In this document: piece by piece, positions 1 through 37,799 of the stretch
Layout of the letters: the number at the start of each line of letters is the position of its first letter
Numbering within the stretch: position 1 is the first letter of the stretch
Assembly: GCF_011045215.1 (NCBI RefSeq)
Contig: NZ_CP049201.1
Strand: one strand, 5' to 3'
Length of the DNA: 64,000 bases
Source of the DNA: Escherichia coli
GTDB taxonomy: Bacteria > Pseudomonadota > Gammaproteobacteria > Enterobacterales > Enterobacteriaceae
Notes under the pieces: generated by a model
What the model was told of the DNA's origin: nothing
The model's input: only the letters and a program-made list of their open reading frames with translations
The model's database searches: none
Position numbers and translations under genes: made by a program

Positions 1-269
1 CCATCGAGAAAGCACTCGGTATTGACCAGGTACGCTTGATCACCACCGGCGGCGACGCCTTTGAAGCCGAACGTGAGCAGTGGAACGACGCCAATAACGT
101 TCTGACCATCCGCCCCGGTGTGGTGATTGGTTACGAGCGCAACGTCTGGACTAACGAGAAATACGACAAAGCCGGCATCACCGTGCTGCCCATCCCGGGG
201 GACGAATTGGGACGAGGCCGCGGCGGCGCACGCTGCATGAGCTGTCCGCTTGAACGCGACGGAATTTAA
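1..269 (+). CDS. arcA: Arginine deiminase, C-terminal fragment (5' end lies outside the window)
   Basis: Frame continues open from the window edge; C-terminus ...[17 protein letters not shown] carries the conserved catalytic Cys motif of arginine deiminases; followed by carbamate kinase and OTC genes. Confidence 0.8.
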
Positions 270-279
270 AGGAGCCATC

Positions 280-1191
280 ATGGAACGAAAACCCACTTTG
301 GTTGTGGCGTTGGGCGGCAACGCATTATTGAAGCGCGGCGAACCACTGGAAGCAGAAATCCAGCGCCAGAACATTGAGTTGGCCGCCCGTACCATCGCCG
401 GGCTCACGGTGAATTGGCGCGTGGTGTTGGTTCACGGCAACGGTCCACAGATCGGGCTGCTGGCGCTGCAGAACAGCGCCTACGACAAAGTAACCCCTTA
501 TCCACTGGACGTTCTTGGCGCCGAAAGCCAGGGGATGATCGGCTACATGCTCCAGCAGGCGCTGAAAAACAGCCTGCCACAGCGTGAGGTGAGCGTCCTG
601 CTTACTCAGGTGGAAGTGGACGCTACTGACCCGGCGTTCAGCAACCCGACCAAATATATCGGACCGGTGTACAACGAAGACCTGGCAAAAACACTGGCAG
701 CAGAAAAAGGTTGGGGGTTTAAGGCCGACGGCAGCTACTTCCGTCGCGTGGTGCCATCTCCACAGCCGAAACGCATTGTCGAGAGCGATGCTATTACGGC
801 ACTGATCCAGCGCGACCATCTTGTTATCTGCAACGGCGGCGGTGGTGTGCCAGTTGTGGAAAAGGCTAACGGCTATCGCGGAATTGAGGCGGTGATCGAC
901 AAAGACCTCTCTGCTGCCCTGCTGGCATACCAGATAGGGGCCGACGCACTACTGATTCTCACTGATGCCGACGCGGTTTACCTCGATTGGGGCAAACCGA
1001 CCCAGCGTCCGCTAGCGCAGGTGACGCCAGAACTGCTCAGAGGCATGCAGTTTGACACCGGATCGATGGGGCCGAAAGTGGCCGCCTGCTGCAAGTTTGT
1101 TGAAGCTTGCAACGGTATTGCCGGGATCGGCGCTCTGGTCGACGGGGCTGAGATTTTGGCGGGCAAGAAAGGCACATTGATTCGTAACTGA
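280..1191 (+). CDS. arcC: Carbamate kinase
   Basis: 303 aa from ATG at 280 with AGGAG 7 nt upstream; N-terminus MERKPTLVVALGGNALL typical of the carbamate kinase (amino-acid kinase) family; operon context. Confidence 0.88.
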   Translation: MERKPTLVVALGGNALLKRGEPLEAEIQRQNIELAARTIAGLTVNWRVVLVHGNGPQIGLLALQNSAYDKVTPYPLDVLGAESQGMIGYMLQQALKNSLPQREVSVLLTQVEVDATDPAFSNPTKYIGPVYNEDLAKTLAAEKGWGFKADGSYFRRVVPSPQPKRIVESDAITALIQRDHLVICNGGGGVPVVEKANGYRGIEAVIDKDLSAALLAYQIGADALLILTDADAVYLDWGKPTQRPLAQVTPELLRGMQFDTGSMGPKVAACCKFVEACNGIAGIGALVDGAEILAGKKGTLIRN

Positions 1192-1275: not shown

Positions 1276-2280
1276 ATGACCATCAATTTGAAAAAACGCA
1301 ACTTCCTTAAACTGCTGGACTACACCCCGGCAGAGATCCAGTACCTGATCGATCTCGCGATCAAACTGAAAGCGGCCAAAAAAGCCGGACGAGAAAAACA
1401 GACCTTGGTTGGCAAAAACATTGCCCTGATTTTTGAAAAAACCTCCACCCGTACCCGCTGTGCTTTCGAAGTGGCTGCGTTCGACCAGGGGGCGCAGGTG
1501 ACCTACCTCGGCCCAGGCGGATCGCAAATCGGCCATAAAGAGTCAATGAAAGACACCGCCCGTGTGCTGGGCCGTATGTATGACGGCATCGAATACCGTG
1601 GTTACGGTCAGGCCATCGTTGAGGAGTTGGGCAAATACGCGGGCGTACCGGTGTGGAACGGTCTGACCGACGAATTTCACCCAACCCAAATCCTCGCAGA
1701 TTTGATGACCATGCTGGAACATTCCCCGGGCAAAAAACTGTCGGAACTGAGCTTTGCCTACCTTGGCGACGCACGCAACAACATGGGTAACTCCCTGATG
1801 GTGGGGGCTGCCAAAATGGGGATGGATATCCGTCTTGTAGCCCCAAAATCCTTCTGGCCGGATGTGGTGCTTGTTGAACAGTGCCGTTCCATCGCGGAAG
1901 AGACGGGCGCACGTATCACCCTGACCGATGACGTGGAAGAAGGCGTGTGGGGAACGGATTTCCTCTACACCGATGTTTGGGTCTCCATGGGTGAACCGAA
2001 AGAGGCGTGGACCGAACGCGTCAGCCTGATGAAGCCTTATCAAATCAACGCTGACGTGATGAACGCCACCGGCAACCCGAACGTCAAGTTCATGCACTGC
2101 CTGCCAGCCTTCCACAATGAGCACACCAAAGTGGGCCGAGAAATTGAGATGGCATACGGCCTGAAGGGACTGGAGGTGACGGAAGAGGTCTTCGAATCCC
2201 CTAACTCTATCGTCTTTGATGAAGCAGAAAACCGCATGCATACCATTAAAGCGGTCATGGTGGCGACACTCGGCGACTAA
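1276..2280 (+). CDS. arcB: Ornithine carbamoyltransferase, catabolic type
   Basis: 334 aa; STRTR carbamoyl-phosphate binding motif, HCLP motif; strong similarity to E. coli ArgI recalled from memory; lies inside the ADI operon. Confidence 0.92.
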
Positions 2281-2327: not shown

Positions 2328-3731
2328 ATGGGTAAGTTCAAATTTCCCTCCGCATATACCATTCTCTTTTTTCTGATTGCCATCGTTGCCGTCCTGACGT
2401 GGATCATTCCAGCCGGGCAGTATCACATGGCAATGAACGAAGCTCTCGGCAAGGAGGTTCCTGTTGCCGGCACCTATGCACACGTAGAGGCCAATCCGCA
2501 GGGACTGATTTCAGTGCTGATGGCCCCAATTGCCGGGTTGTATGATCCAGACTCCGGTCAGGCTAGGGCGATAGACGTTGCGCTGTTTATTCTGATCATC
2601 GGAGGATTCCTCGGGATCGTCACCAAAACCGGGGCCATTGACGCCGGAATCGAGCGCGTCACCACCCGACTACGTGGTCGCGAAGAGTGGATGATCCCGA
2701 TCCTTATGGCGCTGTTTGCTGCTGGCGGTACAATTTACGGCATGGCCGAAGAATCCCTGCCGTTTTATACCCTGCTGGTGCCGGTGATGTTGGCAGCACG
2801 CTTCGACCCTGTGGTAGCCGCCTCCACCGTGCTGCTCGGCGCCGGGATCGGCACGCTCGGTTCCACCATTAACCCTTTCGCGACGGTGATCGCCGCCAAT
2901 GCAGCCGGGATCCCCTTCACCAACGGTATCACCTTGCGTGTGGTGGTGCTTGTCATCGGCTGGATAATCTGCGTGACATGGGTGATGCGCTATGCCCGGA
3001 AAGTTCGCAAGGAGCCGTCTCTCTCCATTATTGCGGATAAACAAGAGGAGAACCTCGCCCACTTCCTCGGCAATAAAAGCGAACAGGCTCTGGAGTTCAC
3101 CCCGGTACGCAAAATTATTCTGGTGATTTTCGCCCTTACCTTCGCGGTCATGATCTACGGCGTGGCGGTGCTGGGTTGGTGGATGGCGGAGATCTCAACG
3201 GTATTTCTGGCCAGCGCAATTATCATCGGCCTGATCGCCCGCATGAGCGAAGAGGAACTGACCTCTACCTTTATCAACGGCGCGCGAGATTTGCTGGGCG
3301 TTGCACTGATTATCGGTATCGCGCGCGGTATCGTAGTGATCATGGATAAAGGTATGATTACCCATACTATTTTGCACTACGCCGAGGGAATGGTTACTGG
3401 ATTATCGACAGTAGCATTCATCAACGTGATGTATTGGCTGGAAGTGGTGCTGTCGTTTCTTGTGCCTTCTTCGTCCGGTCTGGCCGTTCTGACGATGCCG
3501 ATCATGGCACCTCTTGCCGACTTCGCTAACGTCAACCGCGACCTGGTAGTTACGGCTTACCAGTCTGCGTCCGGTATCGTTAACCTGATCACTCCCACCT
3601 CTGCCGTTGTGATGGGCGGACTGGCTATCGCCCACGTGCCTTACGTGCGATATCTGAAATGGGTTGCGCCGCTGCTTGGGATATTAACAGTGGTAATTAT
3701 GGTGGCATTAAGTCTGGGGGCATTGTTGTAA
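2328..3731 (+). CDS. YfcC-family polytopic membrane transporter (putative arginine/ornithine exchanger of the ADI operon)
   Basis: 467 aa, multiple hydrophobic helices, Gly/Ala-rich segments; positioned between OTC and the ArgR-like regulator. Confidence 0.75.
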   Translation: MGKFKFPSAYTILFFLIAIVAVLTWIIPAGQYHMAMNEALGKEVPVAGTYAHVEANPQGLISVLMAPIAGLYDPDSGQARAIDVALFILIIGGFLGIVTKTGAIDAGIERVTTRLRGREEWMIPILMALFAAGGTIYGMAEESLPFYTLLVPVMLAARFDPVVAASTVLLGAGIGTLGSTINPFATVIAANAAGIPFTNGITLRVVVLVIGWIICVTWVMRYARKVRKEPSLSIIADKQEENLAHFLGNKSEQALEFTPVRKIILVIFALTFAVMIYGVAVLGWWMAEISTVFLASAIIIGLIARMSEEELTSTFINGARDLLGVALIIGIARGIVVIMDKGMITHTILHYAEGMVTGLSTVAFINVMYWLEVVLSFLVPSSSGLAVLTMPIMAPLADFANVNRDLVVTAYQSASGIVNLITPTSAVVMGGLAIAHVPYVRYLKWVAPLLGILTVVIMVALSLGALL

Positions 3732-3811
3732 TTTGCCGGATGGCGCTGCCCCTATCCGGTCTACGGAATGGTGTGGTGTCACCGGTTATTTCGAGAACTG
3801 AATATAGGATT

Positions 3812-4291
3812 ATGATGGATTACGAAGATTTCTCTCCCAAAGAGCAACTACAGCTAACGGTCTGCCAACGTCTGATTGCAGAAAAGAGCTATTTTTCCCA
3901 AGAGGAGCTCCGCCGCGACTTACAGGAGCGTGGTTTTGAGACAATCAGCCAGTCCACCGTTTCTCGTCTGCTCAAGTTGTTAGGTGTCATAAAAATTCGA
4001 AATGCCAAAGGGCTAAAAGTCTATTCGCAGAATCCACAGTTGCGTCCGGCTCCTGATGCCGCGCGCACTGTGTCCGAAATGGTGGTGAGCGTTGAGCACA
4101 ATAGAGAATTTATCCTTATCCATACCGTTGCTGGATATGGCCGCGCAGTGGCACGTGTCCTTGATTATCACCAGTTGCCAGAAATTTTAGGCGTGGTGGC
4201 CGGAAGCAGTATCGTCTGGGTCGCTCCTCGGATGGTGAAGCGTGTCGCTCTGGTGCATAAGCAAATTAATTATTTACTAAGAACGTATTAA
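3812..4291 (+). CDS. ArgR-family arginine repressor-like regulator
   Basis: About 159 aa from the ATG at 3812 (the ORF-track start at 3659 is probably too far upstream); resembles ArgR in the N-terminal winged-helix (...SQSTVSRLLKLLGVIKIRNAKG...) and C-terminal oligomerisation region. Confidence 0.78.
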   Translation: MMDYEDFSPKEQLQLTVCQRLIAEKSYFSQEELRRDLQERGFETISQSTVSRLLKLLGVIKIRNAKGLKVYSQNPQLRPAPDAARTVSEMVVSVEHNREFILIHTVAGYGRAVARVLDYHQLPEILGVVAGSSIVWVAPRMVKRVALVHKQINYLLRTY

Positions 4292-5065: not shown

Positions 5066-5096
5066 ACAAAAAAATCCCGGCATAATGGCCGGGATT
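5066..5096 (-). terminator. Intrinsic terminator of the cdi operon (minus strand)
   Basis: Palindrome atcccggc...gccgggat followed on the minus strand by a T7 run, just downstream of the cdiI stop. Confidence 0.6.
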
Positions 5097-5110
5097 TGCG
5101 AGCTTTCCCA

Positions 5111-5485
5111 CTATTTCTTGATTCCTAAACGGAACATATCAGTTGGGAATAAAGGTTGTATTATCACTTCATCATTAAAAATGAATAATTTGGGCGATAA
5201 AGCTGTTACGTCATAGATATTTTCAGCGATTAATCTTAGATTTGACCTAAAAACTGGAATACTTGCATCATCTACAAAGACAAACATGTCATCGTTTTTT
5301 ACAGAGTTTGCACACAATAGCTCATCAAAACTCTCATAATCAGAATGCCAGATCTCTGACCAAGTAACACTTCCTTTCGCGAGAGGGTACTTATTTAAAA
5401 TGCCCAGAGCCTCCTGCTGAGCCAGCCCCTCTACTATATTAAAATCAGCACTCAGTGCTTCCCGACACTCATCAAATAAAGTCAT
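5111..5485 (-). CDS. cdiI: CdiI immunity protein (cognate to the CdiA-CT encoded at 5494-6246)
   Basis: 124-aa acidic protein starting 5 nt after the cdiA stop codon; position and size typical of cdiI. Confidence 0.75.
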   Translation of the reverse strand: MTLFDECREALSADFNIVEGLAQQEALGILNKYPLAKGSVTWSEIWHSDYESFDELLCANSVKNDDMFVFVDDASIPVFRSNLRLIAENIYDVTALSPKLFIFNDEVIIQPLFPTDMFRLGIKK

Positions 5486-5490
5486 TTGCT

Positions 5491-8400
5491 CTACCTGTTT
5501 AGCTGTTTCAATATTGTTTCAAAAGACTTTTCATTGCCTTCAAAAGGTATGACTTGCTTCACCGCTTTTCCAGGGCCTTTACCCTGCGAGTAATCCCATA
5601 TATTGATGTGTGTGCCTTTTTCAGGATCATAATCAACACGCCAACCAACTTTTCCGTCGCTGGATTGCCGCCCTATGACTTTCCCATTACCAGCGCTGAC
5701 TTCCAAACGTCCGATAACTGGCTTAGAGTCCGCTCCTAAATTACCTACAAGATCCAATGCCTTGTTTCGAGCAGTTTCCCAGTTTTTCTCTGGCTTGAGG
5801 ATTTGTTCAATTTTAGGCTGGGAATTCCCTTTAACCTTACTAATTCCCCCAAATGCTGACGCCGCAGCGCTCGCGACTATTCCCGCCTGAACTTCATCCA
5901 AACCGTATTCTTCTTGGAGTGCTTCCGAGACTTTGTTGGTCGCGACAACCCCTTCAGCCTGCATTTGCTGCGCAAAAGTCGCCGTCAGATCGTAGACCAT
6001 TTTGATCGGGATATCTTCACCCAGAGCACGATCTATTGCCTGCTTCACCGCCAGACTGTCAGTCAGTACATCACCGTATTTCTGCTGGCAGGTTGCCGGG
6101 CTGGCTGCACAGTCACTGATCAGTTGCTTTTGCTGTGCCGTACTCAACTCTTCGTACTTTTTGATAATACCGCCGCAGTCACCGCCTTTCGCCTGACAGG
6201 ACTTCATTTCAGCGGACCAAGCATCTATCTGCTTACTGCTCAGATAGTTATTCTCAACAGTTGTCTTACCTGACTGTGCGCCGGCTACCGCTGAAGCCCC
6301 CGAGTCTCCCACCAGACCACCGGCCAGGCCGGCAGCAACCGTTGCCAGTGTCGAGACCGTCTGCTTCTCTGTCTCGCTCAGTTCACTCACCGGCTTACCG
6401 TACATCTGTGTGGCTATCATTCCCACCACCTCGCCGGTGGCTGCACCTGCAGCACCGGCAAGGGCATTCTTACCCTGTGCCAGAGACAGGGCGGCATTCA
6501 CTACTGCATGAGCTGCCACACGCCCCGCACCGTCCGGGGTGGTCTGTTTGATAATTTCAGCAATATACGGCGCTGCACCACCTGCCAGGGCTGCACTCAG
6601 ATTACCGCCGGCCAGTCCCTGTACCGCTGCCGTTGCGGCCTGTATCGCCTGCTGGTATTTGCCTCCCGTTCCAAAACCGGAGGCTGCCATACCGTTATTG
6701 TAGGCCCGCTGTGCCACATCCTGTTCCGTGTACGGTTTTCCTGCTGCCTCAAGCTCTGCGCGGGCCTGATTCAGTGCTGCCGGGTCCCGCTTCGCTTTCT
6801 CACCGGCTATCTGTCCTTCCGTTCTGGCAATATCTGCCACCTGGTTACCAATCTCACCAATGAGTTGCGCCTGCTGCAACCGCTGCTGCTCTTTTTCCCT
6901 GTCAAAGATGGGGGACAGCGTCTGGTTTGCATGCGCAACGTCACGGTTCAGGTCTGCCACATCCTGTTTCTGGCTCTGTGTATCCCGGATAGTGATATTC
7001 CCGGCAGACACAGCCGACTGCGTGGTACTGTCCGCATGGCCTTCATGATTTGCACCGACCAGCAGATTGTTTGCCATGTTCCCCAGGAAATTTCCGGCAA
7101 CACTGCCACCGGTACTGAGCCCTGCACTCTGATGTTCCGTTTTAAAGTCAGCCCGGTTTTCAGTGTCACTGAAGCCCAGTGTGCCGGTATCCAGCCTGTT
7201 TTTATCTGCCGTTGCCGTGGACGCAATCACCGCACCGTTCAGTTGCGTATGCTGTCCGGTGGTGACATCAAACCCGCCCCTGCCGGCAAAAATCCCCGTC
7301 TGCTCCTGTACACTGTCGTAGTTACTGTGCATTTTATCCCGGCTGAGGTTCACACTCGCCGAACCGCTCATGGACCCGAAAGTGAAGCTGCCTCCGGCGC
7401 TGGCATTCTGCTGCTTACTGTCATAACGGTCACTGTCCTGCTCACTGGTCAGTGTCAGATGACGACCGGCATCCACTTTCACCGTTTCACCGCCAGCCTG
7501 CGCGCCGGTAAGCGTGGTGTCCCGCCCGCTGATAATGGTCAGCCGGTTTCCCGCATCCACCGTGGTTTCTGTATGGGTGGTACCGTTGCCTTTTTCACTG
7601 CCCTTACCCTGGTTTGCGCTGGCTGACAGACTGAAACCAGGCCCTCCGGGCCCCACACCGATACCGACACCCACGCTGCCACCACTGGATGTGTTCTTTC
7701 CTTCCAGCTTTGACGTGTTTTCTGCTGATACCAGATTCACGTCACGGTTTGCCTGCAGCAGAACGTTGTTCCCGGCCTTTATCTGACCGCCCTGTATCGT
7801 CAGGTCACCATCCACGCCCTTCACGCCGGAGCCGGTGGCCTGAATACTGAGGTTATTACCTGCGGTCAGTGTACTGCCCTTCGCCACCGTCTGCTCTGAC
7901 TGCTGTTCTGATTTCGAAGACTGGCTGCCGTAAGAGAGGCTGATACCCACGGTATTGTTATTCTCTTTCTGGTTGCCCTGTGCTTCTGCCAGTCGTCCGG
8001 CCTGCACGGCCTGAGCCCCCGAGAGCGCGGCCTTCACCCCCTGCAGGGCTTCAAGCCGGCTGTTTCCGGCAGATTTCGCCGCCTGTACGGTCTCCACCGT
8101 CGTGTTCAGGGCGCTGCCCGCTGTGCCGGACAGGGCAAGCGTCAGACCGGAGGTTTTCTGCTCCACCGTATGTGTCTGCACATGCCGGTCAGTGGCGGCG
8201 GTAATGCTGACCTCCTTACCACTGAGTGCCATGTCCCTGCCGGCAATCAGGTCAGAGCCGTTGACGGTCAACCGGTTACCTGCCTGAAGGGAAACATCAC
8301 CGTGAACACTCCCCACCGTGCTGCCTTTCTGCGTGGTGTCTGTTGCGGTGTCCGTGACCTTCAGACTCTGGCTGCCCACGCTGAATCCCACACCTCCGGA

Positions 8401-11400
8401 GCTCATCAGTCCGGATTTTTTCTCCTGTTTCAGGTGTGTTTCACGGTTGCTTTCTGTCAGCGTTCCGATACTCAGGTTATTTCCGGCAGCCAGGGAGACA
8501 CGGTTATCCCCGGCCACACTGCTGCCCGTGACGTTCAGATTATGTCCGGCACCGATACTGACCGTATCCCCGTTCAGTTCACTGCCCGTCATGGTCCGGC
8601 GGTCAGTGACATCATGCGTGGTAGTGGTGGTTTTCGATAACATCCCGCTGTTGCCGGTCACTTTATGGTATTCATCCAGCGAGCGGGTATTCTGTGCACC
8701 GGTCAGCGTCACGTCATGACCCGCCATCAGGGCCAGGCCTTTCTGAGCTGACAGCGATGCCGCCTGTGACGTCATATCCCGTCCGGCGGTCAGCGTGACA
8801 TCACCGTTACCGGCAAGTGTGCTGCCCGTATTCTGTGTGACGCCCTGCGACAGACGATTATTTTTATCCCAGGTAATATTGTCCTGCGCGGATGTGGTCA
8901 CCGTGGAAAGCGTCATATCCCTGCCGGCACTGAGTTGTGTCAGGCTGTCCTTACCCTGATTCACCACCGTTGCCGCCGTCAGATTCATATCCCGTCCGGC
9001 CTGCAGCACCAGTCTTCCCTGGTCGTTCTGCACATACACGCCGGCCACACTGTCGATACTGGTACGTTCAAAATGGTTCTGCCCGGCGTCGCGCTGTGCC
9101 GTACGGGTGGTGGTGGTCAGACTGATATCCCGTCCGGCCATCGCCAGCAGGCTGTCCGTGGCCTGCAGCAGCCCGCCGGTACTGTTAATATCCGTCCGGG
9201 CCGTCAGGCTGACATTTGCTCCCTGAATGGTGCCGGCCTGGTTGTGAATGTTTTCTGCACTGAGCTGCACGGCCTGCTTCCCGGCCAGTTTACCGCTGTT
9301 AAACAGGTCACCATCCAGCTTCATCACCATGTCCCTGCCGGCAATCAGCGCACCGGCACTGTTCACATCACCGGGTTTTACACGGGCATACACCTGAGGT
9401 ACCTGAACCGTCTGCGTGCTGCCGTCCGGCAGTGTCACCGTGGTGTTAACCAGCCAGACAATATCACCGGTCAGTAACGCCATCTGCTCAGCAGTCAGCG
9501 CCACACCTGGTGTCAGGTTGTATTGCTTACCAAATGCAATACCCGCATCCATTAACGCCTTAAACTGCTCTTCATCATTACTGTATCCGTCCAGGTACCG
9601 TTGCCCGGTCAGAGCGACAACCTGCTCACGAATCAGACGCTGTTCGTAAAAACCATCCCCCAGGCGTTTGAGCATGTTATCCCCGTTCTGAGAAAACGCC
9701 TTCTGCATGTAATCACTGCCCAGCCACGTCTTCTGGTTCGTAAAACGCGGGTCCGTTTCAACCAGATATGGCACATTCACTGCCGGATTTGTTTTAAACA
9801 GGCTGCTGTCCGGCAGACGGGTATCCGGCCCGGCAACATGGATACTGCCCTGAGGTGCGCTGACTTCAAACTGCTGCCCCGGCAACAGAATGACCGGTTC
9901 ACCGGCTGACACCACCGGGCGAAGCGGTATCCGGTCAGTAACGGCTACTGTCGCATCCACATTTCCGGTCAGTCCTGTCTGTACATCCGTTCCCTGTGGC
10001 TTCAGGGGAGAAAGCGTGACCTGGCTGCCCTGAACCTGTCCGTGGCTGGTGAGCTCTCCCGGCTTCAGCGTGATGGTCTGAATGACGGGGGGCGGCTCGT
10101 AAGGGGAAATTCTTTCCCCCTGCCTGTCATTTTTATTTTTTCTTTTTATCCGGTAATAATATGTGGATGTCCCTTTATCAGTAACATGGCGCTCTCCGCT
10201 GACACTGACGTTTTCCACATCACCGGCCTGCATATCCAGCAGACCACCTGCAACCACCTGGCTCTTGTCATTAAGCAGTTTGTCTGCCACAACCGTCATG
10301 CCGGCACCGGACAGTATTTTCCCCGGGTCGGAGTCTTTTACCCGGGTTTCCTCCACGGTACGGGTGTATTCATATTTTGTGAACCGGTCGTTGTTATGTC
10401 CGGTATCATCCGGCGTGTTCAGGTTCAGCAGTCCATCAGAGGAGTTGTTATCAATGAACACCCCCTCATCTTTTGCATTCCAGCGGACATCTGACCCGCG
10501 ATGCTGATACTCAGTCACCTTTTCCGTGGAGACCACCACGCGCTCCGTGGTGAAATGGTCATTGACGTTATTGATTTGCCCGGCACTCAGTGTCAGGGAA
10601 CCGGCGGCTTCAATCGTGGCACTGTGATTATTCAGTACACCGGCTTTCCCCGTGGCGGCGCCATTCGCATCCAGCATGCCACCGATATGCATATCACCTG
10701 CACTGTAAATCAGGCTGTGCGTCCGGTTATTCAGGGTCTGTACCCCCAGGTCCACACGCTCACGTCCGGCCAGCGTCGCCGCCACGCCATTTTCATCCAG
10801 ATTATTAAATGTGGCAGCGCTGACACCAACAGCATCGCCGTAGATTCGCCCGGTACCGGAATTCGTCAGGGTGTTCGCCTGAAGATGCGTATATTTCCCG
10901 TCAATCAGCCCACGGTTCAGCAGTGTGTCCGTCACGTTAAGCCAGGTCTGCCCGGCACTGATTTCACCTTTCTCTGTGTTTTCAAGGCGGATGCTGTTCA
11001 GGTCAAGCCGGCTGCCTGCCAGCAGGCTGCCGGTATTAGAGACATCGCCATTAACGGAAAGCGTAAGGTTTCCGTTTGCAATGGTCTGACCACTGTTACT
11101 GAACGCTGTGTTACTTTTCAGCGTTATATCGCCCGGCGAAAGCAGTTTCCCGTCACCACCAAGCTGACCGACATCCACAGAGACTGACTGCCCGGCCTTA
11201 ACCACGCCGTCACGGTTCGAAAACGCCAGCTGACGGCCACTGACAGACAATGTCGCGCCGGAAGAGAGCACGCCATCATTATTACTGAGCGTCCTGTCTG
11301 CCATAACCGTAAGCGCCCTGTCTGCCAGAATACTGCCCTCCTGGTTATCAAGGTCCTGCGTCGTGATGTGTATTGTCTGCGCTTCCAGCCCCTGGCCGGT

Positions 11401-14400
11401 ATTCTGCGTGTGGCGATTGATAAACTGCAGGGCGTTCAGCGTAATGGCAGAACCACTGCGAATCAGACCAGAGACGTTGTCCACAACGCCCCGTACACTG
11501 TCGAACAGAATGTCGCCCACAGACTGTATCTGTCCGTGGCTGTTCTGCAGGCCTCCCGTATGCAGACGGAGTTCACCTTCACTGACCAGCCGGCCACCCT
11601 CACGGTTATCCAGCGAGGTGGTGCTCAGGTCAGCTGTCGTTTTCGCCCCCACGGTCCCGCCCCGGTTATCCATTGCTCCGGTACTGACAGTCAGTTCCTG
11701 CAGGCTGTTCAGCGTACCCCCTCTGTTATCCAGCGTCCGGCCTGCGCTATTAATGCTGATGCCTTTCCCCTGAATAAGACCGGACTGATTGTTCAGCGCC
11801 AGACTGTTCCGGCCGGGCAGACCGGTCGCCACAATCTGACCATTCGCCACCACCTGACCGGATGTATTGTTAACCACGCCTGCAGTCAGGGACAGCGCAT
11901 CTCCCGACAAAAGCACACCGGCAGTGCTGTCCAGTGTGCCGGCATTCAGCGTCATCGGGCCCTGACTGATAACCCCGCCCCGGTCACCACTGTTACGGTT
12001 GCTCAGTGTGTCAGCACGGAGATTCAGTGTGGCACCGCTCTGTATCAGACCACCTGCATCATTGCTGATATCCGTCGAGGAAAGGGTCAGTGACTGCTGT
12101 GCCACCAGTCTGCCGCCCTGATTATCAGAGCGGGTGACATCCAGCCTGCTGTTACCGTTGCTGACCACCGTCCCCTGCTGATTTTCCAGCACATTCAGGT
12201 GCGCATTCAGGTCCCCGCCGGCGGCAAGCGTCCCTTCCTGATTACTGACATCGCCACCACTCAGCAACATATCCGTCCCGGCCTTCAGTGCGCCTTTCTG
12301 GTTCATCAGCGTACCTGACGATATCTGTAATGACGCCTGACTCCCCAGCACGCCCTGACGGTTATCGAGCGTTCCGGCGTTCAGGGTCATATCCTTCTGA
12401 CCCGCCATAAATCCCTGCTGGTTATTCAGCATACCGGCCCGTACTGTCAGGGTACCGGCGCTGCTGATACCACCCCGTGTTTTCGTGTTCCGGTTACTGA
12501 GAACCCCGTCCTGTACATCCAGCGTCATGTCACTGCCGGACTGAATCAGACCATCATCAGAGACCAGTTCGCTGCCTGACACAGACAGCGTTTTCTGTGA
12601 AAGCAGTCTGCCGGACGTATTATCCAGCGCACCATCCAGCGTCACGGACAGCCCGTCAGACACCACCGTACCCTGGTGGTTATTCAGACTCCCTGCCGAA
12701 ATATCCAGCCTGCCGGCGGACTCCATTCGTCCCTCAGTATTGCTGACAGCCTGCTGTGTTTTTATCCTGCCCGTTCCGGCAGCAGCTGAAATCAGTCCGT
12801 TGTCGTTATTCAGTGCCTGTGTATTAATCAGGATGTCACGGCTGGCAATCAGACTTCCCTGCTGGTTATCCACGGCGCCGGTTGTCCTCACCTGCAGACT
12901 ACCTGACTGCGCCGCCTGCACTTTCCCCCTGCGATTATCAAGGCTCAGTGCATCCAGGCGCACCGCGCCATTTGCCGCAAGCAGCCCTTCCCGGTTATCC
13001 ACACCTCCCGGCAGGTTCAGTGAAAAATCCCCTGTTCCCGTCTGAATCAGTTTACCCCTGTGGTTTGACAGGCTCTGTGCTGATATCTGCAGTGTGTCGG
13101 CATTTATCGTGCCGTCATTATTGCTGAACTGCCCGGCAGTCCGGGCGGAAAGCGTACCGGCACTCAGTTGCGCATTTTGCGTGAACAGATTTCCGCTGCC
13201 TGCATCCAGCTCAGTATGTTGTCCCTGTATCCGGCTGTTGCTTAAATCCAGCCCCTGCCCCTTCAGTTGCATGTCCCCACCGGACAGAACCTGTCCGTGT
13301 GCCGCCAGTTCGCCGGTGGTACTGACAGTCAGGTTGCCCGCTGCCGCCAGACGTCCGTCATCTTTCACCCCGGCGGCCAGCAGACTCCGCTCACCGCCGG
13401 TCAGACGCGCTGTCTGAATCCGGGTGTTGCGACGTGATGCCACAGAGCCTGTATGGGTGAATACACCATCACTCTGTATCTGCGTATCCTGCCCCGCATA
13501 AACAGAACCACTGTTATGCAGCTCCCGGGTTGTCACCAGATGCACATCCGTTTTCGCACTGATACTGCCACTGTTTTCAATTCGTCCGTCAGCCGTCAGG
13601 GTAACCGCCCCTGCCTGCGCACCAATATGACCGGCGTTACGAACACCCACCCCCGTTTCCGTACCGACAAGGCGAATTTTTCCGGCATACATTCCACCAA
13701 GGCTGGACACATCCAGCGCCACCTGTGGCTGCGAAGAGGCATCAGCGGCTTTTTTCTCAGTCTGCCCGTGTGCAATATCCACATTGTTACGTCCGGTGGT
13801 CACTTTCAGGTCCTGCGCCCAGATACCCGCATTAATCTTCACAGACCGGGCAATGATATCGGTATAATCCGTGCGCGAGGCATCCATCCCTTTGCCCGTA
13901 ATCTGAATCTCACCACGTTCAACACTGAATCCGGTCAGACTGCCGTTTTTCATCTGAGGCTGCCCCGTGGTCAGCGTGGCCCGGTTCGCATTAATAAAAC
14001 CGCACCCGTCGCAACTGATGCCGGCCGGGTTCGCAATCACCACCTGCGCCTTTTTCCCGGCAACCTCAACAAAACCGTTCAACTGGCTGGGATTGCGACT
14101 GTTCACTTCATTAAGAATGATTCGGGCCTCTCCCTTCGCCAGCCACGGGTTACCGGCAACCATGCCGCCCAGTTGGGTCTGCACATTTTTATGCGAGTTA
14201 TTCAGAATGACACCCTGATGACTGACATCAAACTGACTGTAAGTATTGTGCGATACCCCACCTGCAGAAGGTGTCTGGATATTGACCTGAGGAATGCCGC
14301 TGGCTGTCTGCGTAATCGTGGGCTGCTGATGCCCCGGTGCGCCATGGTCTGCGACAATGCCTGCAGCACTGACAGAATGCACCATCCCCGAGGCCAGCCA

Positions 14401-14565
14401 CAGGGAGAATGCAAGCGATGTGACACGGCAGATACGTTGCCTGCGTGGATATCCTGTACGGGAGGAGGGTGATGCACCGGCGCGACCGGAACGGGCAATA
14501 TCTGCCACCACCATCAGCATTCCCCGGGCTTTGTTAAAAATAATGCGGTAACAATTTTTGTTCAT
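5491..14565 (-). CDS. cdiA: CdiA contact-dependent inhibition exoprotein (TpsA/filamentous-haemagglutinin family), 3024 aa
   Basis: N-terminal extended signal peptide MNKNCYRIIFNKARGMLMVVADIA; TPS domain; long Gly/Thr/Asn/Ser-rich FHA-type repeats; VENN motif at codons 6247-6258; 251-aa variable C-terminal domain. Confidence 0.95.
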   Translation of the reverse strand: MNKNCYRIIFNKARGMLMVVADIARSGRAGASPSSRTGYPRRQRICRVTSLAFSLWLASGMVHSVSAAGIVADHGAPGHQQPTITQTASGIPQVNIQTPSAGGVSHNTYSQFDVSHQGVILNNSHKNVQTQLGGMVAGNPWLAKGEARIILNEVNSRNPSQLNGFVEVAGKKAQVVIANPAGISCDGCGFINANRATLTTGQPQMKNGSLTGFSVERGEIQITGKGMDASRTDYTDIIARSVKINAGIWAQDLKVTTGRNNVDIAHGQTEKKAADASSQPQVALDVSSLGGMYAGKIRLVGTETGVGVRNAGHIGAQAGAVTLTADGRIENSGSISAKTDVHLVTTRELHNSGSVYAGQDTQIQSDGVFTHTGSVASRRNTRIQTARLTGGERSLLAAGVKDDGRLAAAGNLTVSTTGELAAHGQVLSGGDMQLKGQGLDLSNSRIQGQHTELDAGSGNLFTQNAQLSAGTLSARTAGQFSNNDGTINADTLQISAQSLSNHRGKLIQTGTGDFSLNLPGGVDNREGLLAANGAVRLDALSLDNRRGKVQAAQSGSLQVRTTGAVDNQQGSLIASRDILINTQALNNDNGLISAAAGTGRIKTQQAVSNTEGRMESAGRLDISAGSLNNHQGTVVSDGLSVTLDGALDNTSGRLLSQKTLSVSGSELVSDDGLIQSGSDMTLDVQDGVLSNRNTKTRGGISSAGTLTVRAGMLNNQQGFMAGQKDMTLNAGTLDNRQGVLGSQASLQISSGTLMNQKGALKAGTDMLLSGGDVSNQEGTLAAGGDLNAHLNVLENQQGTVVSNGNSRLDVTRSDNQGGRLVAQQSLTLSSTDISNDAGGLIQSGATLNLRADTLSNRNSGDRGGVISQGPMTLNAGTLDSTAGVLLSGDALSLTAGVVNNTSGQVVANGQIVATGLPGRNSLALNNQSGLIQGKGISINSAGRTLDNRGGTLNSLQELTVSTGAMDNRGGTVGAKTTADLSTTSLDNREGGRLVSEGELRLHTGGLQNSHGQIQSVGDILFDSVRGVVDNVSGLIRSGSAITLNALQFINRHTQNTGQGLEAQTIHITTQDLDNQEGSILADRALTVMADRTLSNNDGVLSSGATLSVSGRQLAFSNRDGVVKAGQSVSVDVGQLGGDGKLLSPGDITLKSNTAFSNSGQTIANGNLTLSVNGDVSNTGSLLAGSRLDLNSIRLENTEKGEISAGQTWLNVTDTLLNRGLIDGKYTHLQANTLTNSGTGRIYGDAVGVSAATFNNLDENGVAATLAGRERVDLGVQTLNNRTHSLIYSAGDMHIGGMLDANGAATGKAGVLNNHSATIEAAGSLTLSAGQINNVNDHFTTERVVVSTEKVTEYQHRGSDVRWNAKDEGVFIDNNSSDGLLNLNTPDDTGHNNDRFTKYEYTRTVEETRVKDSDPGKILSGAGMTVVADKLLNDKSQVVAGGLLDMQAGDVENVSVSGERHVTDKGTSTYYYRIKRKNKNDRQGERISPYEPPPVIQTITLKPGELTSHGQVQGSQVTLSPLKPQGTDVQTGLTGNVDATVAVTDRIPLRPVVSAGEPVILLPGQQFEVSAPQGSIHVAGPDTRLPDSSLFKTNPAVNVPYLVETDPRFTNQKTWLGSDYMQKAFSQNGDNMLKRLGDGFYEQRLIREQVVALTGQRYLDGYSNDEEQFKALMDAGIAFGKQYNLTPGVALTAEQMALLTGDIVWLVNTTVTLPDGSTQTVQVPQVYARVKPGDVNSAGALIAGRDMVMKLDGDLFNSGKLAGKQAVQLSAENIHNQAGTIQGANVSLTARTDINSTGGLLQATDSLLAMAGRDISLTTTTRTAQRDAGQNHFERTSIDSVAGVYVQNDQGRLVLQAGRDMNLTAATVVNQGKDSLTQLSAGRDMTLSTVTTSAQDNITWDKNNRLSQGVTQNTGSTLAGNGDVTLTAGRDMTSQAASLSAQKGLALMAGHDVTLTGAQNTRSLDEYHKVTGNSGMLSKTTTTTHDVTDRRTMTGSELNGDTVSIGAGHNLNVTGSSVAGDNRVSLAAGNNLSIGTLTESNRETHLKQEKKSGLMSSGGVGFSVGSQSLKVTDTATDTTQKGSTVGSVHGDVSLQAGNRLTVNGSDLIAGRDMALSGKEVSITAATDRHVQTHTVEQKTSGLTLALSGTAGSALNTTVETVQAAKSAGNSRLEALQGVKAALSGAQAVQAGRLAEAQGNQKENNNTVGISLSYGSQSSKSEQQSEQTVAKGSTLTAGNNLSIQATGSGVKGVDGDLTIQGGQIKAGNNVLLQANRDVNLVSAENTSKLEGKNTSSGGSVGVGIGVGPGGPGFSLSASANQGKGSEKGNGTTHTETTVDAGNRLTIISGRDTTLTGAQAGGETVKVDAGRHLTLTSEQDSDRYDSKQQNASAGGSFTFGSMSGSASVNLSRDKMHSNYDSVQEQTGIFAGRGGFDVTTGQHTQLNGAVIASTATADKNRLDTGTLGFSDTENRADFKTEHQSAGLSTGGSVAGNFLGNMANNLLVGANHEGHADSTTQSAVSAGNITIRDTQSQKQDVADLNRDVAHANQTLSPIFDREKEQQRLQQAQLIGEIGNQVADIARTEGQIAGEKAKRDPAALNQARAELEAAGKPYTEQDVAQRAYNNGMAASGFGTGGKYQQAIQAATAAVQGLAGGNLSAALAGGAAPYIAEIIKQTTPDGAGRVAAHAVVNAALSLAQGKNALAGAAGAATGEVVGMIATQMYGKPVSELSETEKQTVSTLATVAAGLAGGLVGDSGASAVAGAQSGKTTVENNYLSSKQIDAWSAEMKSCQAKGGDCGGIIKKYEELSTAQQKQLISDCAASPATCQQKYGDVLTDSLAVKQAIDRALGEDIPIKMVYDLTATFAQQMQAEGVVATNKVSEALQEEYGLDEVQAGIVASAAASAFGGISKVKGNSQPKIEQILKPEKNWETARNKALDLVGNLGADSKPVIGRLEVSAGNGKVIGRQSSDGKVGWRVDYDPEKGTHINIWDYSQGKGPGKAVKQVIPFEGNEKSFETILKQLNR
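5494..6258 (-). other. VENN motif plus CdiA-CT polymorphic toxin domain (251 aa)
   Basis: gttgagaataac (VENN) encoded on the minus strand at 6247-6258; Cys-rich segment (SCQAKGGDCGG...DCAASPATCQQ) right after VENN; distinct C-terminal domain ...GWRVDYDPEKGTHINIWDYSQGKG... Confidence 0.8.
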
Positions 14566-14580
14566 TCTGATAAACCTGAC

Positions 14581-15108
14581 TTATCTCTCCGGCACATCCA
14601 CAGCAAGCGGGTGCTGCACACGCCACTGGCGCGCCTCTTCACGACTGACCTGTGCACCCCGGAAATTCATCACCCGCAACCCGGTCTGCTGCCCACGGTG
14701 GTACAGCGAACGCCAGCACAGACGGGGAAAAATATCCTGCCGGACAAGACGACTCATATCCGGGGTATGTCCAAAAGGGGCAATCCAGTCACAGACCCAC
14801 ATCCGGTCGCCGCTGTTCCAGTCCGACTGAGGCATGAGAATTGCCGGCTGCGTAAGATAACGCGCCTCTGCCTCCGGGCTGAGCCAGGCCTGGCTCATGA
14901 AGAAAACCGGTCGCCCCTGCTCTGTTGCCACCACATACTGTCGGTGCTTAATCACCGGCAGCAGCAGGTCCGGCAGGGTATGCAGTGGCGCATCACGATG
15001 CAGGGGGGAGTGCATCCACAACCAGACGGCCGCCCCCAGGACTTCCGCCTCATTGACCGGCTCACCGGAATACAGGGGACTCAGAACGTCATATTTCCCG
15101 TTACGCAT
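14581..15108 (-). CDS. cdiC: CdiC, HlyC/TAAT-family lysine acyltransferase
   Basis: 175 aa; WLWMHSPLHRD ... HRQYVV ... WNSGDRMWVCDWIAPFGH closely parallel the HlyC motifs (WLWASSPLHRN ... NQYVLL ... WTSGDRKWFIDWIAPFGD, recalled from memory); sits between cdiB and cdiA. Confidence 0.85.
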   Translation of the reverse strand: MRNGKYDVLSPLYSGEPVNEAEVLGAAVWLWMHSPLHRDAPLHTLPDLLLPVIKHRQYVVATEQGRPVFFMSQAWLSPEAEARYLTQPAILMPQSDWNSGDRMWVCDWIAPFGHTPDMSRLVRQDIFPRLCWRSLYHRGQQTGLRVMNFRGAQVSREEARQWRVQHPLAVDVPER

Positions 15109-15117
15109 GAAACTTTC

Positions 15118-16857
15118 TCAGAAATCCCGGAACAGATTAAAACCGGCTGTCACATCACTCGTCATAAAACCCGCCGGCTTTGAAAACGGACGACCGATGA
15201 AAACGTCATAATCCGTACTGAACAGTTGCCCCCTCAGCCCCACAACACCACCAGCCAGATGACGTCCCACCAGGTATTCACTGCCGGCTCCCCCCACCTC
15301 GCCGTAATCCATTCCCAGATATAACTCCTGCTCCGGCAGTGGCGTACGCCAGGCCAGGTCGTTGCGGATATACCAGCCGTTACTGGCATTCAGCGTTCGC
15401 TCCCCGTCAAAACCACGAACCGTCCAGCGGTTACCGATGGCAAACTGTTCCTGTGGGGTCAGCGGGGTATTGCTCAGCTGGCGCTGATACCGGAAGGAAT
15501 AACTGAAGGGCTGCCCTGCAAGGGTAAAGGGCAGATTAAAGGATGCATTCAACTGCAGGATCTTACTGAGCGCCGTTGCCTCACCGAACGTTTCTTCCGG
15601 CGCCGGCTGTGCACCAAACCAGCGGGTTCCCCGTTGCCAGCTGACACCAGCATCCAGTGTGGCCTGAGAAATATAATGACGGTGCTGCAGCCCAAGTCGC
15701 CAGGCCGCTGTCTGCCGGCGCTGCACCTGGATTTCCGTATCATTAATGTAGTTACGCGACCTGCGGGCCTGAACATCGTAGGTCAGCACCGTTTTCTGCG
15801 TCCCGTTACGGTGCAGTACCCGGCTCAGCTGCATACCCAGATTCTGACTCTCGCCACTGTACTGGTAATCCTCAACCGCACCAGCTACCGTCTGATGGTA
15901 ATCGTAATCACTGGCGGTGACGGAAAACTGCCAGTAGCCGAAAGGCACAGAGTAATGGGCCGTGTAGTTTTTACTGCCCTTACCCCCGTAATGTGGAAAA
16001 TTACGGGTGGCAGAAACATACAGCAGGTCACTCAGGGAAAAAGGATTATCCAGAGAAAATGTTATACCACCGAGATAACGCCCTGTGCTGCGGGTACCTG
16101 AATCATCAAGCGAAAACCCCAGTCGCCAGTATTTGTCCTGTTTGCGGGTAATAAGAATGTCACTTTCCCCTGGCTGCTCACCGGGTACAATTTCCATATC
16201 AGCCTGCACACCCGGCAGTCGTTGCATATTCTCCAGCCCCTGCTCAATGTCCCGTAAATCCAGCAGAGAACCTTCGTGTGCCGGGAATGAGGAATACAAC
16301 TGAATATAGTCATCACTGTCCGGTGTCAGACGCACATGTCGCACAACACCGGGAATAACAACCAGCCGGAGGATACCGCTTTTTAAATCCTGCGAAGGTG
16401 CCAGAACACGGGTGGTGACATAACCATGATCGACCAGACGGTTCTGCAATGTACTCATCAGCAGATTAATTCCTTTCGCCCCCAGGCAATGCCCGACCGC
16501 CCCGTTGGCGATTTTTTGTAAAGGCAGCCAGTGTGGTAACGCATCAGCCCCCTCCAGTTCCGTCTGTTTAATCTGAAAACAGGGCGTTTCAACAGGAAAA
16601 TTAATCTTACGGGCAAAAGAGCCAGGTGCAGAAAGGCGAACATCAGGGGCTGAAGGCGTCAGTTGTTGCTCAAGGGCTTCCTGACGCTGCTGCTGAATGA
16701 TAAATGCATTATCTCCGCTACGCCGGACATCCGCGGCCTGAAGAGATAAAGGCGATAATAAAACAGACATCAGTGTCAGTGACAGCAAGGACGGACAGCG
16801 CCGGAATACGCTTTGTTCCTCAGCCCTCTCGTTCCTGCAACATAATTTTCCAGTCAA
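15118..16857 (-). CDS. cdiB: CdiB outer-membrane TpsB transporter (ShlB/FhaC/HecB family)
   Basis: 579 aa; signal peptide; POTRA-like N-terminal region and beta-barrel C-terminus ending in an aromatic residue; immediately upstream of cdiC-cdiA. Confidence 0.9.
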
Positions 16858-17448
16858 ACGAAAAACCTTTTATTCATGTCATACCAACAATCACCAGCCT
16901 CCTGACGATACCTCCCACCATGTTTTGCGATGGTACGCTACCGCCCTTCCGGTATTTACCCGCATCAACCGGTACCAGAATGTTGAGTAATAAATTTGTC
17001 AACTCTGAATTGGTTTAATTTTGATCATTATAGAATGAAGATCTGAAAATTCTCAATATTGCAGACATATCGATCGATATGTAGTTATCACGTAGTTATT
17101 TATTCCAACTAATATCGCAAAAGCAGCATATTGCAAAACTTATAACCACGGAGAACAAAAAACGACAGAAAATTATTCCGTAAGATGCTTCAAATACAGC
17201 CAGTCAACACTGAAAAAAGTGATTTTTGATTAAAATCATTGAAGTTTATGCAGTACAGAATCTGAGCGGTTCTCAGCGAAAGTCAGAAGAAAGGGAGGTG
17301 AGGTAAAAGGCAGAAATCAGAGTGACAGGAATGCACAAAAAGCAAAAAAAAATCAACAAAACAATAAATTAACATACCCCGAAAAAGCATCCGCAACGTA
17401 CCGGGTAATAACAACAATATCGTGTAAAACAACATTGTTCCGGAAGTT

Positions 17449-28730: not shown

Positions 28731-29933
28731 TTATTTATTCACAATTTGAGACATCACATAATCCGCCCATGCCTGCATCATCGGTACACGCTGCTCCAGT
28801 AGATCAGTGCGATGATATGCCGCCTCAACCTTATTTTTCAGCGTATGAGCGAGCGCCCTTTCCGCCAGATCCCGCGAATACCCCTGTTCACTACACCAGT
28901 CCCTGAATGTTGAGCGAAAACCATGTGCCGTGGCAACTCGCCCCGGAATGTCACTGACGGCTTTCTTTTTACGCAGAAAACTTGTCAACACCATATCGGA
29001 AAGGATCTGCTGCTTTCTGGGTGAAGGGAACACCAGTTCATCATGCAGGCCACGTATATTTTCCAGAATGTAAATAGCCTGCCGGGATAAAGGAACACGA
29101 TGCTGTAGCCTAGCTTTCATTCTTTCTGCAGGTATAGTCCATACCCGCTTATGAAAATCAATTTCAGCCCAGCGCATTCCCCTGGCTTCGCCCGAGCGAG
29201 TTGCTGTAAGTATCACCATTAATAACAGTGCGCGGGTAACATTATAAGGTTCATCACTATACACACTGGTCGCCACAAAAAGCGGTAACTGCCTCCAGGG
29301 CATTGCGGGTTGGTGTTCATCACGTCCTCTTGTCTGCTGAGGAAGCAAATGGTCAACCACATCAACAGGATTTGCCACACAAAAACCGTGCGCCCATCCC
29401 CACTGCATAACAACATGAATGCGCTGTTTAACCCGGCTTGCCGTTTCTGACAAGGTTAACCAGACTGGACGCAATGTTTCTGCCACGTCCGCAGCCGTAA
29501 TCGAATCCAGCGTTTTTGCTCCCAGTTGAGGAAACGCGTAATTCTCAAGCGTCGATAACCACTGCCTTACATGCTTTGGATTTTCCCATCCAGGAGACAG
29601 TTCTGCATGTACACGCCTGGCTGCATCGGCAAATGTTGGGATAACGACTTTCTCAGATTCAGCCTTTTTAATCTCCAGAGGATCATCACCTGCAGCAAGT
29701 TGCTCTCGCATTATCCGGGCAGTACGTGCAGCTTCAGCAATACTGACCTCTGGGTAAGTTCCCAATCCAGCATTACGTCTTTTTTGTGTCACCGGACTTA
29801 CATAACGAAAAACCCATTTCCCCCGCCCCTTTACTGAAGAAGGATGAAGGGTCAGTCCGGTAATTCCCCCATGGGGCAATGGTTTGTCATCAGGTTTGAT
29901 ATGTCTTGCTTTCGTATCCGTCAATACTGCCAT
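28731..29933 (-). CDS. int: P4-type (tyrosine recombinase) phage integrase
   Basis: 400 aa; N-terminus MAVLTDTKARHIKP...; C-terminal catalytic region with HGFRST...; ends ...LAHT...AYHRTD...RVPMMQAWADYV, conserved in P4-family integrases. Confidence 0.9.
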   Translation of the reverse strand: MAVLTDTKARHIKPDDKPLPHGGITGLTLHPSSVKGRGKWVFRYVSPVTQKRRNAGLGTYPEVSIAEAARTARIMREQLAAGDDPLEIKKAESEKVVIPTFADAARRVHAELSPGWENPKHVRQWLSTLENYAFPQLGAKTLDSITAADVAETLRPVWLTLSETASRVKQRIHVVMQWGWAHGFCVANPVDVVDHLLPQQTRGRDEHQPAMPWRQLPLFVATSVYSDEPYNVTRALLLMVILTATRSGEARGMRWAEIDFHKRVWTIPAERMKARLQHRVPLSRQAIYILENIRGLHDELVFPSPRKQQILSDMVLTSFLRKKKAVSDIPGRVATAHGFRSTFRDWCSEQGYSRDLAERALAHTLKNKVEAAYHRTDLLEQRVPMMQAWADYVMSQIVNK

Positions 29934-31010: not shown

Positions 31011-31997
31011 TCACTTATTAAAATGCCCCCAACGGAAATACATGTCACATGCCATCATAAAATCGTTATGCCAGAGGAACCGACAATGGAAAAAATAGTA
31101 AATTAAGCACGGTACATAGCAGAGTAAAAAATAGGCTTCAAACCAAATCCGCCATTCCACAAGCGTTGCCAATACCGACACCAGCGTAATCCACATCACT
31201 TCAATAACCAGCAATATGAATAACCGAAGCCAAAGCGGCTTGGCAAAAAAGGTCGACAACGCATTTTCACTGGAGAAAAACAGATCGATTTCCTGCAAAA
31301 AAAGCCTGCCCAGAAAAGCGTACCGCTTGGAGAAGCGCAGAAAAAACAGATTAATCGCCAACACTACGCCACAAAGAATGAGCAATGCAATTATCGATTT
31401 AAACGTTAACCACTGCCCCTCTGTCACAAAAGAGTTACTGTTACGCAACGGGCTGATAGTAAGCAGGTTAACAACCGTTGAGATACAAACCGAAAGCAGC
31501 ACATAGCGAGTCAGACTTTTATATTTTACTTTTTTCGCTACTGAAATAGCGACCTGCTTGACATAACTGGTGCGGATCATCCGAAACAACAGAAAGATGA
31601 CCAACGGCCCAAGTAACGAAATCAGGAACAGCGCATATAACGAGGGTAGAAGCTGGTATAGCCCCCAACTCATTGCACTCAACATGATTAACGACAGAAA
31701 TCCTGCCACCAGAGGTTGTGTAAGAAATAATTCTATTTTGTGGTTCTGCTTTTTCTTAAACCACGAAAAATCGATATTCTTCGTGACGCATTTATAAGCC
31801 CAGTACGCCTTGAGATCAAAAATAAAATTATACAGCACCAGGGCCAGAATCCCACTAACTACACCAATATCCTCTGATGGAAAAGTAAACCCTGCATTTT
31901 TCCAATAAAAGCCTATCAGAATAAGTCCAATAGCATAAATGTATATCAGATTTCGTTTATCCTGAAAGCGAATAAAAGTTAAATAATCAGGAATCAT
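31011..31997 (-). CDS. Hypothetical polytopic inner-membrane protein (last gene of the biosynthetic cluster)
   Basis: 328 aa, multiple hydrophobic helices; start overlaps the stop of the upstream acyltransferase. Confidence 0.5.
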
Positions 31998-32938: not shown

Positions 32939-32948
32939 CTCTTTATCC

Positions 32949-35122: not shown

Positions 35123-35130
35123 AATCAGTC

Positions 35131-37789: not shown

Positions 37790-37799
37790 ACGACTGTCG

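Follow-up and report, generated by a model that had tools for sequence, protein, structure and literature searches.

Organization of the cdi operon

Within the 64-kb window, by which we mean the whole stretch of Escherichia coli DNA that was analyzed, four genes lie on the minus strand in the order cdiB-cdiC-cdiA-cdiI, and all four reading frames were intact (579, 175, 3024 and 124 aa, respectively). The cdiB ORF (15118..16857, minus strand) encodes a TpsB/Omp85 transporter with Pfam matches to POTRA_2 (6.8e-23), POTRA_3 (2.6e-17) and the full ShlB barrel (1.4e-109). This frame opens with a TTG at 16857, and the real start of cdiB is likely the ATG at 16770, which directly precedes a signal-peptide-like stretch. 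The stop codon of cdiB (TGA, 15118-15120) is followed after 9 nt by the ATG of cdiC (14581..15108, minus strand), the product of which was assigned as a toxin-activating lysine acyltransferase through Pfam, PDB, alignment and predicted fold. After 175 codons cdiC ends in a TAA stop (14581-14583), and a further 15 nt lead to the ATG of cdiA at 14565. The tight packing of a 175-aa ORF at this place, with the motifs described below, had been claimed in a sequence-only reading of the same DNA and was confirmed.

Gene cdiA (5491..14565, minus strand) encodes a class IV CDI effector of 3024 aa, whose Pfam domains comprise ESPR (1.6e-10), TPS (1.8e-57), Fil_haemagg repeats and PT-VENN (2.2e-21). The layout of the protein runs from the ESPR signal through the TPS domain, FHA-1 repeats, receptor-binding domain, FHA-2 and PT-VENN to the C-terminal toxin. 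The VENN motif (CdiA residues 2770-2773; 6247..6258, minus strand) marks the boundary between the conserved body of the protein and the variable CdiA-CT. The exact CdiA protein is present in NCBI as QIF14235.1 / WP_164475831.1. Downstream lies cdiI (5111..5485, minus strand), which encodes an immunity protein of 124 aa carrying the NCBI name "CDI toxin immunity protein."

Upstream of cdiB, a promoter-like site (17027..17056, minus strand; TTGAGA, 18-nt spacer, TATAAT) has 11 of 12 matches to a sigma-70-like consensus and is a consensus match only. In the related STEC4 locus, described below, removing the predicted cdi promoter abolished activity (PMC8510554). An intrinsic-terminator-like hairpin (5072..5097, minus strand), with a 10-bp stem containing six GC pairs and a T-run, begins 14 nt after the cdiI stop codon. 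This single promoter-like site and single terminator bracket the four genes, all on the minus strand. The features that characterize a CDI system were found together, namely a TpsB protein with POTRA and ShlB domains, a CdiA with TPS, FHA and VENN regions, and an immunity gene downstream. This arrangement indicates that the cdiBCAI locus is complete and forms one operon, in which a same-strand cdiC stands between cdiB and cdiA, and the placement of the ORF in a cdi operon given by the sequence-only reading therefore held. From the intact reading frames, we assume that the operon is expressed and functional in the source strain.

The C-terminal toxin domain of CdiA (residues 2919-3024; 5494..5811, minus strand) was identified by its match to PDB 5T86 chain A, an entry named "CdiA toxin," to which the last 106 residues are identical throughout (106/106, E 2.8e-67). 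CdiI shares 121 of its 124 residues with chain I of that entry. PDB 5T86 is a crystallized CdiA-CT/CdiI complex with no mechanistic paper, the activity of the toxin being unpublished, and the fold of this toxin is disputed between two papers, one of which places it with the BECR RNases and the other with the metal-binding VOC family. Between the VENN motif and the toxin domain, the sole Pfam signal was a weak match to DUF6862. The GC content is mosaic inside the operon (cdiC 60%, cdiA 56% with 48% past the VENN motif, cdiB 53%, and cdiI 37%), as would be expected if the CT/immunity cassette is a module exchanged horizontally.

The cdiC gene and its product

The CdiC sequence contains two motifs, VWLWMHSPLHR and SGDRMWVCDWIAPFG, both of which align with their counterparts in HlyC, EhxC, ApxC and the CdiC of Ralstonia. 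The Pfam family HlyC (PF02794, "RTX toxin acyltransferase family") matched residues 23-149 with an E-value of 4.6e-32, and the match spanned the whole model (positions 1-127 of 127). In the PDB, the sole solved relative was ApxC (4WHN; E 3.6e-27, approximately 39% identity). Judged by their scores, the PF02794 and ApxC matches are far beyond chance. An NCBIfam search of CdiC, CdiA-CT and CdiI returned no family, only sub-threshold noise, and the family assignment of CdiC therefore stands on Pfam and the PDB.

An AlphaFold2 model of CdiC (pLDDT 84.8, pTM 0.82) was compared with the PDB. The top matches were the chains of 4WHN (E 2.7e-14, TM 0.75–0.79, rmsd 2.0–2.4 Å), and GNAT-type acyltransferases ranked far below them, so that CdiC is predicted to have the TAAT (GNAT-like) fold. 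These results upheld the earlier assignment of the ORF to the HlyC/TAAT family.

The catalytic residues were assessed in an alignment of CdiC with HlyC and EhxC from annotated plasmids, Vibrio RtxC, ApxC and the Ralstonia homolog. His37 of CdiC, within SPLHR (codon 14998-15000, minus strand), was invariant across the aligned set. Asp107, within CDWIAPFG (codon 14788-14790, minus strand), was matched by Asp in Ralstonia CdiC, HlyC, EhxC and ApxC, and by Glu in Vibrio RtxC. The literature gives His24 and Asp93 as the catalytic residues of ApxC and His23 as that of HlyC. An alignment check of the catalytic His and Asp had been proposed with the original family claim, and both residues proved to be kept; by this alignment CdiC is, as predicted from its sequence, an intact member of the TAAT/HlyC family with a His37/Asp107 dyad.

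The composition of cdiC is coding-like (GC1/GC2/GC3 of 0.68/0.45/0.68). Compared with two E. coli orthologs, the gene showed four synonymous and one non-synonymous codon differences in each case. Against the CdiC of strain cM8a, the window protein was identical at 174 of 175 positions, with I109V as the sole change.

NCBI lists the same protein on 103 contigs under the name "toxin-activating lysine-acyltransferase [Escherichia coli]," and its 90% cluster has 740 members. Among 5426 complete E. coli genomes, 198 carry cdiC, annotated by RefSeq as a toxin-activating lysine-acyltransferase, and these copies have a DNA identity of at least 90%; this frequency bears out the suggestion that cdiC-containing loci form a minority class. 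Outside E. coli, the megaplasmid of Ralstonia solanacearum has the same B-C-A gene order, with a CdiC that is 58% identical to that of the window.

The receptor-binding domain and the predicted acyl-acceptor lysine of CdiA

The receptor-binding domain of CdiA (approximately residues 1337-1610; 9736..10557, minus strand) was assigned to class IV from an identity of approximately 82% to fragments of STEC4 type, P0033 among them. The homolog search for this domain returned 21 matches, mostly partial proteins, and was used for placing the lysine, not as a survey of conservation. The sequence of CdiA-STEC4 itself was taken from the machine-read text of Fig. S3 of PMC8510554, and its acyl-site string was confirmed on database fragments. 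CdiA-STEC4 shares the N-terminus of the window protein (MN[RK]NCYRIIFNKARGMLMVVADIARSGRAG), and the two are colinear through the receptor-binding domain (STEC4 Val1328-Pro1601).

On alignment, the predicted acyl acceptor of the window protein is Lys1476 (codon 10138..10140, minus strand), which corresponds to the acylated Lys1467 of CdiA-STEC4. The surroundings of the site read ERHVTDKGTSTYYYRIKRKNKNDRQGER in the window and ERHVTDSGTSTYYYRIRKKGKDKQGEK in STEC4-type proteins, with core strings of YYYRIKRKNK and YYYRIRKKGK, respectively. Residue by residue, STEC4 Lys1466 is matched by Arg1475, Lys1467 by Lys1476, Gly1468 by Asn1477 and Lys1469 by Lys1478, and the window context carries one extra residue (KRKNKND vs. 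RKKGKD). More distant homologs in Cronobacter, Photorhabdus, Klebsiella and Ralstonia have a Lys/Arg-rich patch at the same position, following an aromatic cluster. The Lys1467 position is always Lys in cdiC-positive clusters (PMC8510554), and the window CdiA obeys this rule through Lys1476. In STEC4 the substitution K1466A lowered modification (PMC8510554), and the window protein has Arg at the equivalent position. The sequence-only reading had placed the modified lysine in the receptor-binding region of CdiA, and this agrees with the class IV domain found here, in which Lys1476 stands at the experimentally mapped acylation position.

Two acyl-site strings were seen among E. coli strains, the STEC4-type in cM8a and the window-type in 08-00022. 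When the window was compared with cM8a, positions 10077..10676 showed only 79–85% nucleotide identity, with in-frame indels of 9 and 3 nt, whereas the flanking cdiA segments were 97–100% identical. This divergent stretch ends just past the acyl-acceptor lysine, and the hot spot suggests that class IV receptor-binding alleles are exchanged by recombination. Lesser dips in cdiA identity to cM8a were seen at 11577..11876 (89%, with an in-frame 18-nt indel) and at 7077..7376 (88%). We think it rather unlikely that the window and STEC4 alleles are adapted to different LPS core types of E. coli, that they differ in how efficiently they are acylated, or that the acylated lysine is shifted; if so, polymorphism of the class IV receptor-binding domain would act as a target-range switch like those of classes I–III.

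Relation to known systems

The closest system of known function is the cdiBCAI locus of E. coli STEC_O31 (STEC4). In that system, deletion of cdiC and the substitutions H37A and D107A each cut killing approximately 100-fold and left the export of CdiA unaffected (PMC8510554). When the receptor-binding domain was produced with CdiC it gained approximately 171 Da, corresponding to 3-hydroxydecanoate at Lys1467, and the substitution K1467R phenocopied the cdiC deletion (PMC8510554). Lipidation raised cell binding approximately 6-fold, and CdiA-STEC4 uses the inner core of LPS, with its phosphorylated heptoses, as receptor (PMC8510554). The dyad alignment, the mass spectrometry and the cdiC deletion that the sequence-only reading put forward as checks have thus already been reported for this sister locus (PMC8510554).

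The window locus resembles that of STEC4 in species and gene order, in a dyad that is numbered identically (His37, Asp107), in highly similar CdiA N-terminal and FHA regions, and in a class IV domain with Lys at the mapped site. A further link is provided by cM8a, in which the CdiC with 174 of 175 identical residues adjoins a receptor-binding domain of STEC4 type. From the residue numbering, the cM8a protein and the at least 90% DNA identity of the 198 copies, we infer that the CdiC of the window is near-identical to CdiC-STEC4. The two loci differ in the length of CdiA (2939 aa in STEC4 vs. 3024 aa in the window), in the toxin, which is Ntox25 in STEC4 and of 5T86 type in the window, and in CdiI.

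Another cdiC was described in Xenorhabdus doucetiae, where an HlyC-like ORF of approximately 175–180 aa that separates cdiB from cdiA encodes CdiC-FRM16 (Ogier et al., PLoS One 2016, PMC5131962). There, cdiBCAI forms one co-transcribed operon on a mobile island, and CdiC co-evolves with CdiB and CdiA (PMC5131962). That system differs from the window locus in its genus, in a much longer CdiA (4436 aa) and in its DNase toxin (PMC5131962).

The RTX toxin acyltransferases HlyC, EhxC, ApxC (4WHN) and CyaC share the Pfam family, fold and His/Asp dyad with CdiC, as well as the acyl-ACP-dependent N-acylation of a lysine in a co-encoded secreted toxin. However, their identity to CdiC is only 31–39%, and their substrates are pore-formers secreted by type I systems, whereas that of CdiC is a type Vb (TPS) filament. 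The RTX acceptor lies in a Gly-Lys motif and that of the window CdiA does not. The acyl chain is 3-hydroxydecanoate in STEC4 compared with C14–C16 for RTX toxins, and the lipid serves LPS receptor binding in STEC4 in contrast to pore formation in the RTX toxins.

Taken with the published work, these comparisons lead us to conclude, with a probability of about 0.9, that the window ORF is the cdiC of a class IV cdiBCAI system and that its role is to acylate CdiA. We are somewhat less confident of the exact acceptor residue and acyl chain in the window CdiA. That CdiA is acylated, which acyl chain it receives and that LPS is its receptor are carried over by analogy from STEC4. In the mechanism that we propose, CdiC would take an acyl chain (3-hydroxydecanoyl in STEC4) from acyl-ACP in the cytoplasm, before Sec export, and transfer it to the epsilon-amine of CdiA Lys1476 by direct attack of that amine. 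CdiB would then export CdiA, so that the receptor-binding domain, rich in Tyr and Lys/Arg and now lipidated, comes to lie at the tip of the filament. On the target cell, the basic residues of the tip may bind the LPS inner core with its phosphorylated heptoses, and the acyl chain may become embedded in the lipid A leaflet, so that lipidation would raise binding affinity and increase killing approximately 100-fold. The 5T86-type CdiA-CT would be delivered into the target cell, and CdiI would neutralize the toxin in sibling cells.

If so, the source strain probably has a class IV CdiA effector that binds LPS and resembles a lipoprotein. The class IV reading matters for target range, in that rough or deep-rough cells and O-antigen-shielded cells would respond differently. 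Both the gene and its acylation function are already known, cdiC having been named in 2016 in X. doucetiae, where the cdiBCAI type was found to be widespread (PMC5131962), and its role having been shown in 2021 (PMC8510554). As the family, dyad, substrate lysine, acyl chain and receptor are published and the gene is annotated, the finding opens no new question. Its value is local, and lies in an intact copy of the locus with a variant receptor-binding allele and a 5T86-type toxin of unpublished activity.

Alternative explanations

The sequence-only reading had warned that cdiC might easily be taken for a shadow frame of its neighboring genes and dismissed. It overlaps neither cdiB nor cdiA, and its ortholog is annotated routinely by RefSeq, so that neither part of the warning applied. 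A chance or shadow frame without a product might still be argued from the 190-aa ORF that overlaps cdiC on the opposite strand (14611..15183, plus strand) and from the absence of any NCBIfam model matching the CdiC product. This idea was refuted by the Pfam (4.6e-32) and PDB (3.6e-27) matches, the TAAT fold, the 740-member cluster and the conserved position in Ralstonia, and the real shadow ORF is the plus-strand one at 14611..15183. Decay of the locus was a second consideration, in which cdiC would be intact merely as a small mutational target and the system would be non-functional in the source strain. In 08-00022, cM8a and O157:H7 strains, the annotation gives an intact cdiC next to a cdiB and a cdiA that are fragments or pseudogenes, and a similar fate could be supposed here. 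But the window has four intact frames with complete domain architectures, the dyad and the acceptor Lys are kept, and the differences of cdiC from its orthologs are synonymous to non-synonymous in a ratio of 4:1; we regard decay as the least probable of the explanations that survived.

It is also improbable, if slightly less so than decay, that CdiC modifies a substrate other than, or additional to, a lysine of the CdiA receptor-binding domain. Candidates would be a different position in CdiA, CdiB, the second TpsA of the window (47528..51340) or an RTX toxin encoded at another place in the genome. The 2021 authors state that they did not look at further positions in CdiA or CdiB (PMC8510554), and the second TPS pair lies 30 kb away in the window, adjoining a gene cluster of ACP/FAS-like character. 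Against this, the phenotype of K1467R equals that of the cdiC deletion in STEC4, so other sites carry little functional weight, and neither RTX GGxGxD repeats nor a second TAAT was found in the 64-kb window. The second TpsA matches CdiA in its TPS and FHA repeats only, not in the receptor-binding domain, and in strain 100181 the second TPS pair and the lipid cluster stand beside ycdU without an adjacent cdi island. Acylation of CdiA within its receptor-binding domain by CdiC is therefore the reading that we retain, and no observation in the window contradicted it.

Broken copies of the locus were seen in several genomes. In the loci on NZ_CP013662.1 (L001) and NZ_CM176589.1 (L002), and in other complete E. 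coli genomes including O157:H7, cdiB is annotated as two pieces (POTRA and ShlB). In L001, L002 and several others, cdiA is fragmented or interrupted by IS66, and cdiC is an intact frame of 175 aa. As cdiC is an approximately 20-fold smaller mutational target, its survival in these broken loci need not mean selection.

Genomic setting

The cdi locus lies within an island whose right bound is a tyrosine integrase gene (28731..29933, minus strand) next to ycdU. The left flank holds an arc-type gene set on the plus strand, consisting of genes for a carbamate kinase (250..1191), an ornithine carbamoyltransferase (1276..2280), a YfcC-like transporter (2328..3731) and an ArgR-like regulator (3659..4291). 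Between this set and the integrase there are also YfjI, inovirus Gp2-like, ECs1377-family and DUF4222 genes. ARAGORN found no tRNA genes in the 64-kb window.

Beyond the integrase are ycdU, a FAS-like lipid cluster, a second TPS pair, a fimbrial operon and an EAL protein. The second pair comprises a TpsA of 1270 aa (47528..51340, minus strand) and a TpsB of 539 aa (45820..47439, minus strand). It is directly followed on the same strand by the lipid-synthesis-like (ACP/FAS-like) cluster (31011..45804, minus strand), which ends at ycdU and whose genes were named from the RefSeq annotation of strain 100181. These genes encode a holo-ACP synthase, an SDR, a FabZ-like dehydratase, an ACP and an aminomethyltransferase, together with two ketosynthases, an ABC transporter, a LolA-like protein and an ACP S-malonyltransferase.

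We considered whether this cluster feeds CdiC, and rejected that as the main reading because the cluster is outside the integrase-bounded cdi island. Such a role is also opposed by strain 100181, where the cluster has no cdi island beside it, and by the activity of the STEC4 locus in E. coli MC1061 when carried on a plasmid (PMC8510554). That the cluster at approximately 31–45.8 kb supplies a dedicated acyl-ACP donor is far less likely even than a difference in target range or acylation between the receptor-binding alleles.

The remainder of the window contains a chaperone-usher fimbrial operon (52733..59357, plus strand), a gene for a winged-helix regulator (60973..61785, plus strand) and one for an EAL-domain protein (62382..63992, minus strand). 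In strain 100181, the region matching 52733..63992 is followed by dgcT and pgaABCD.
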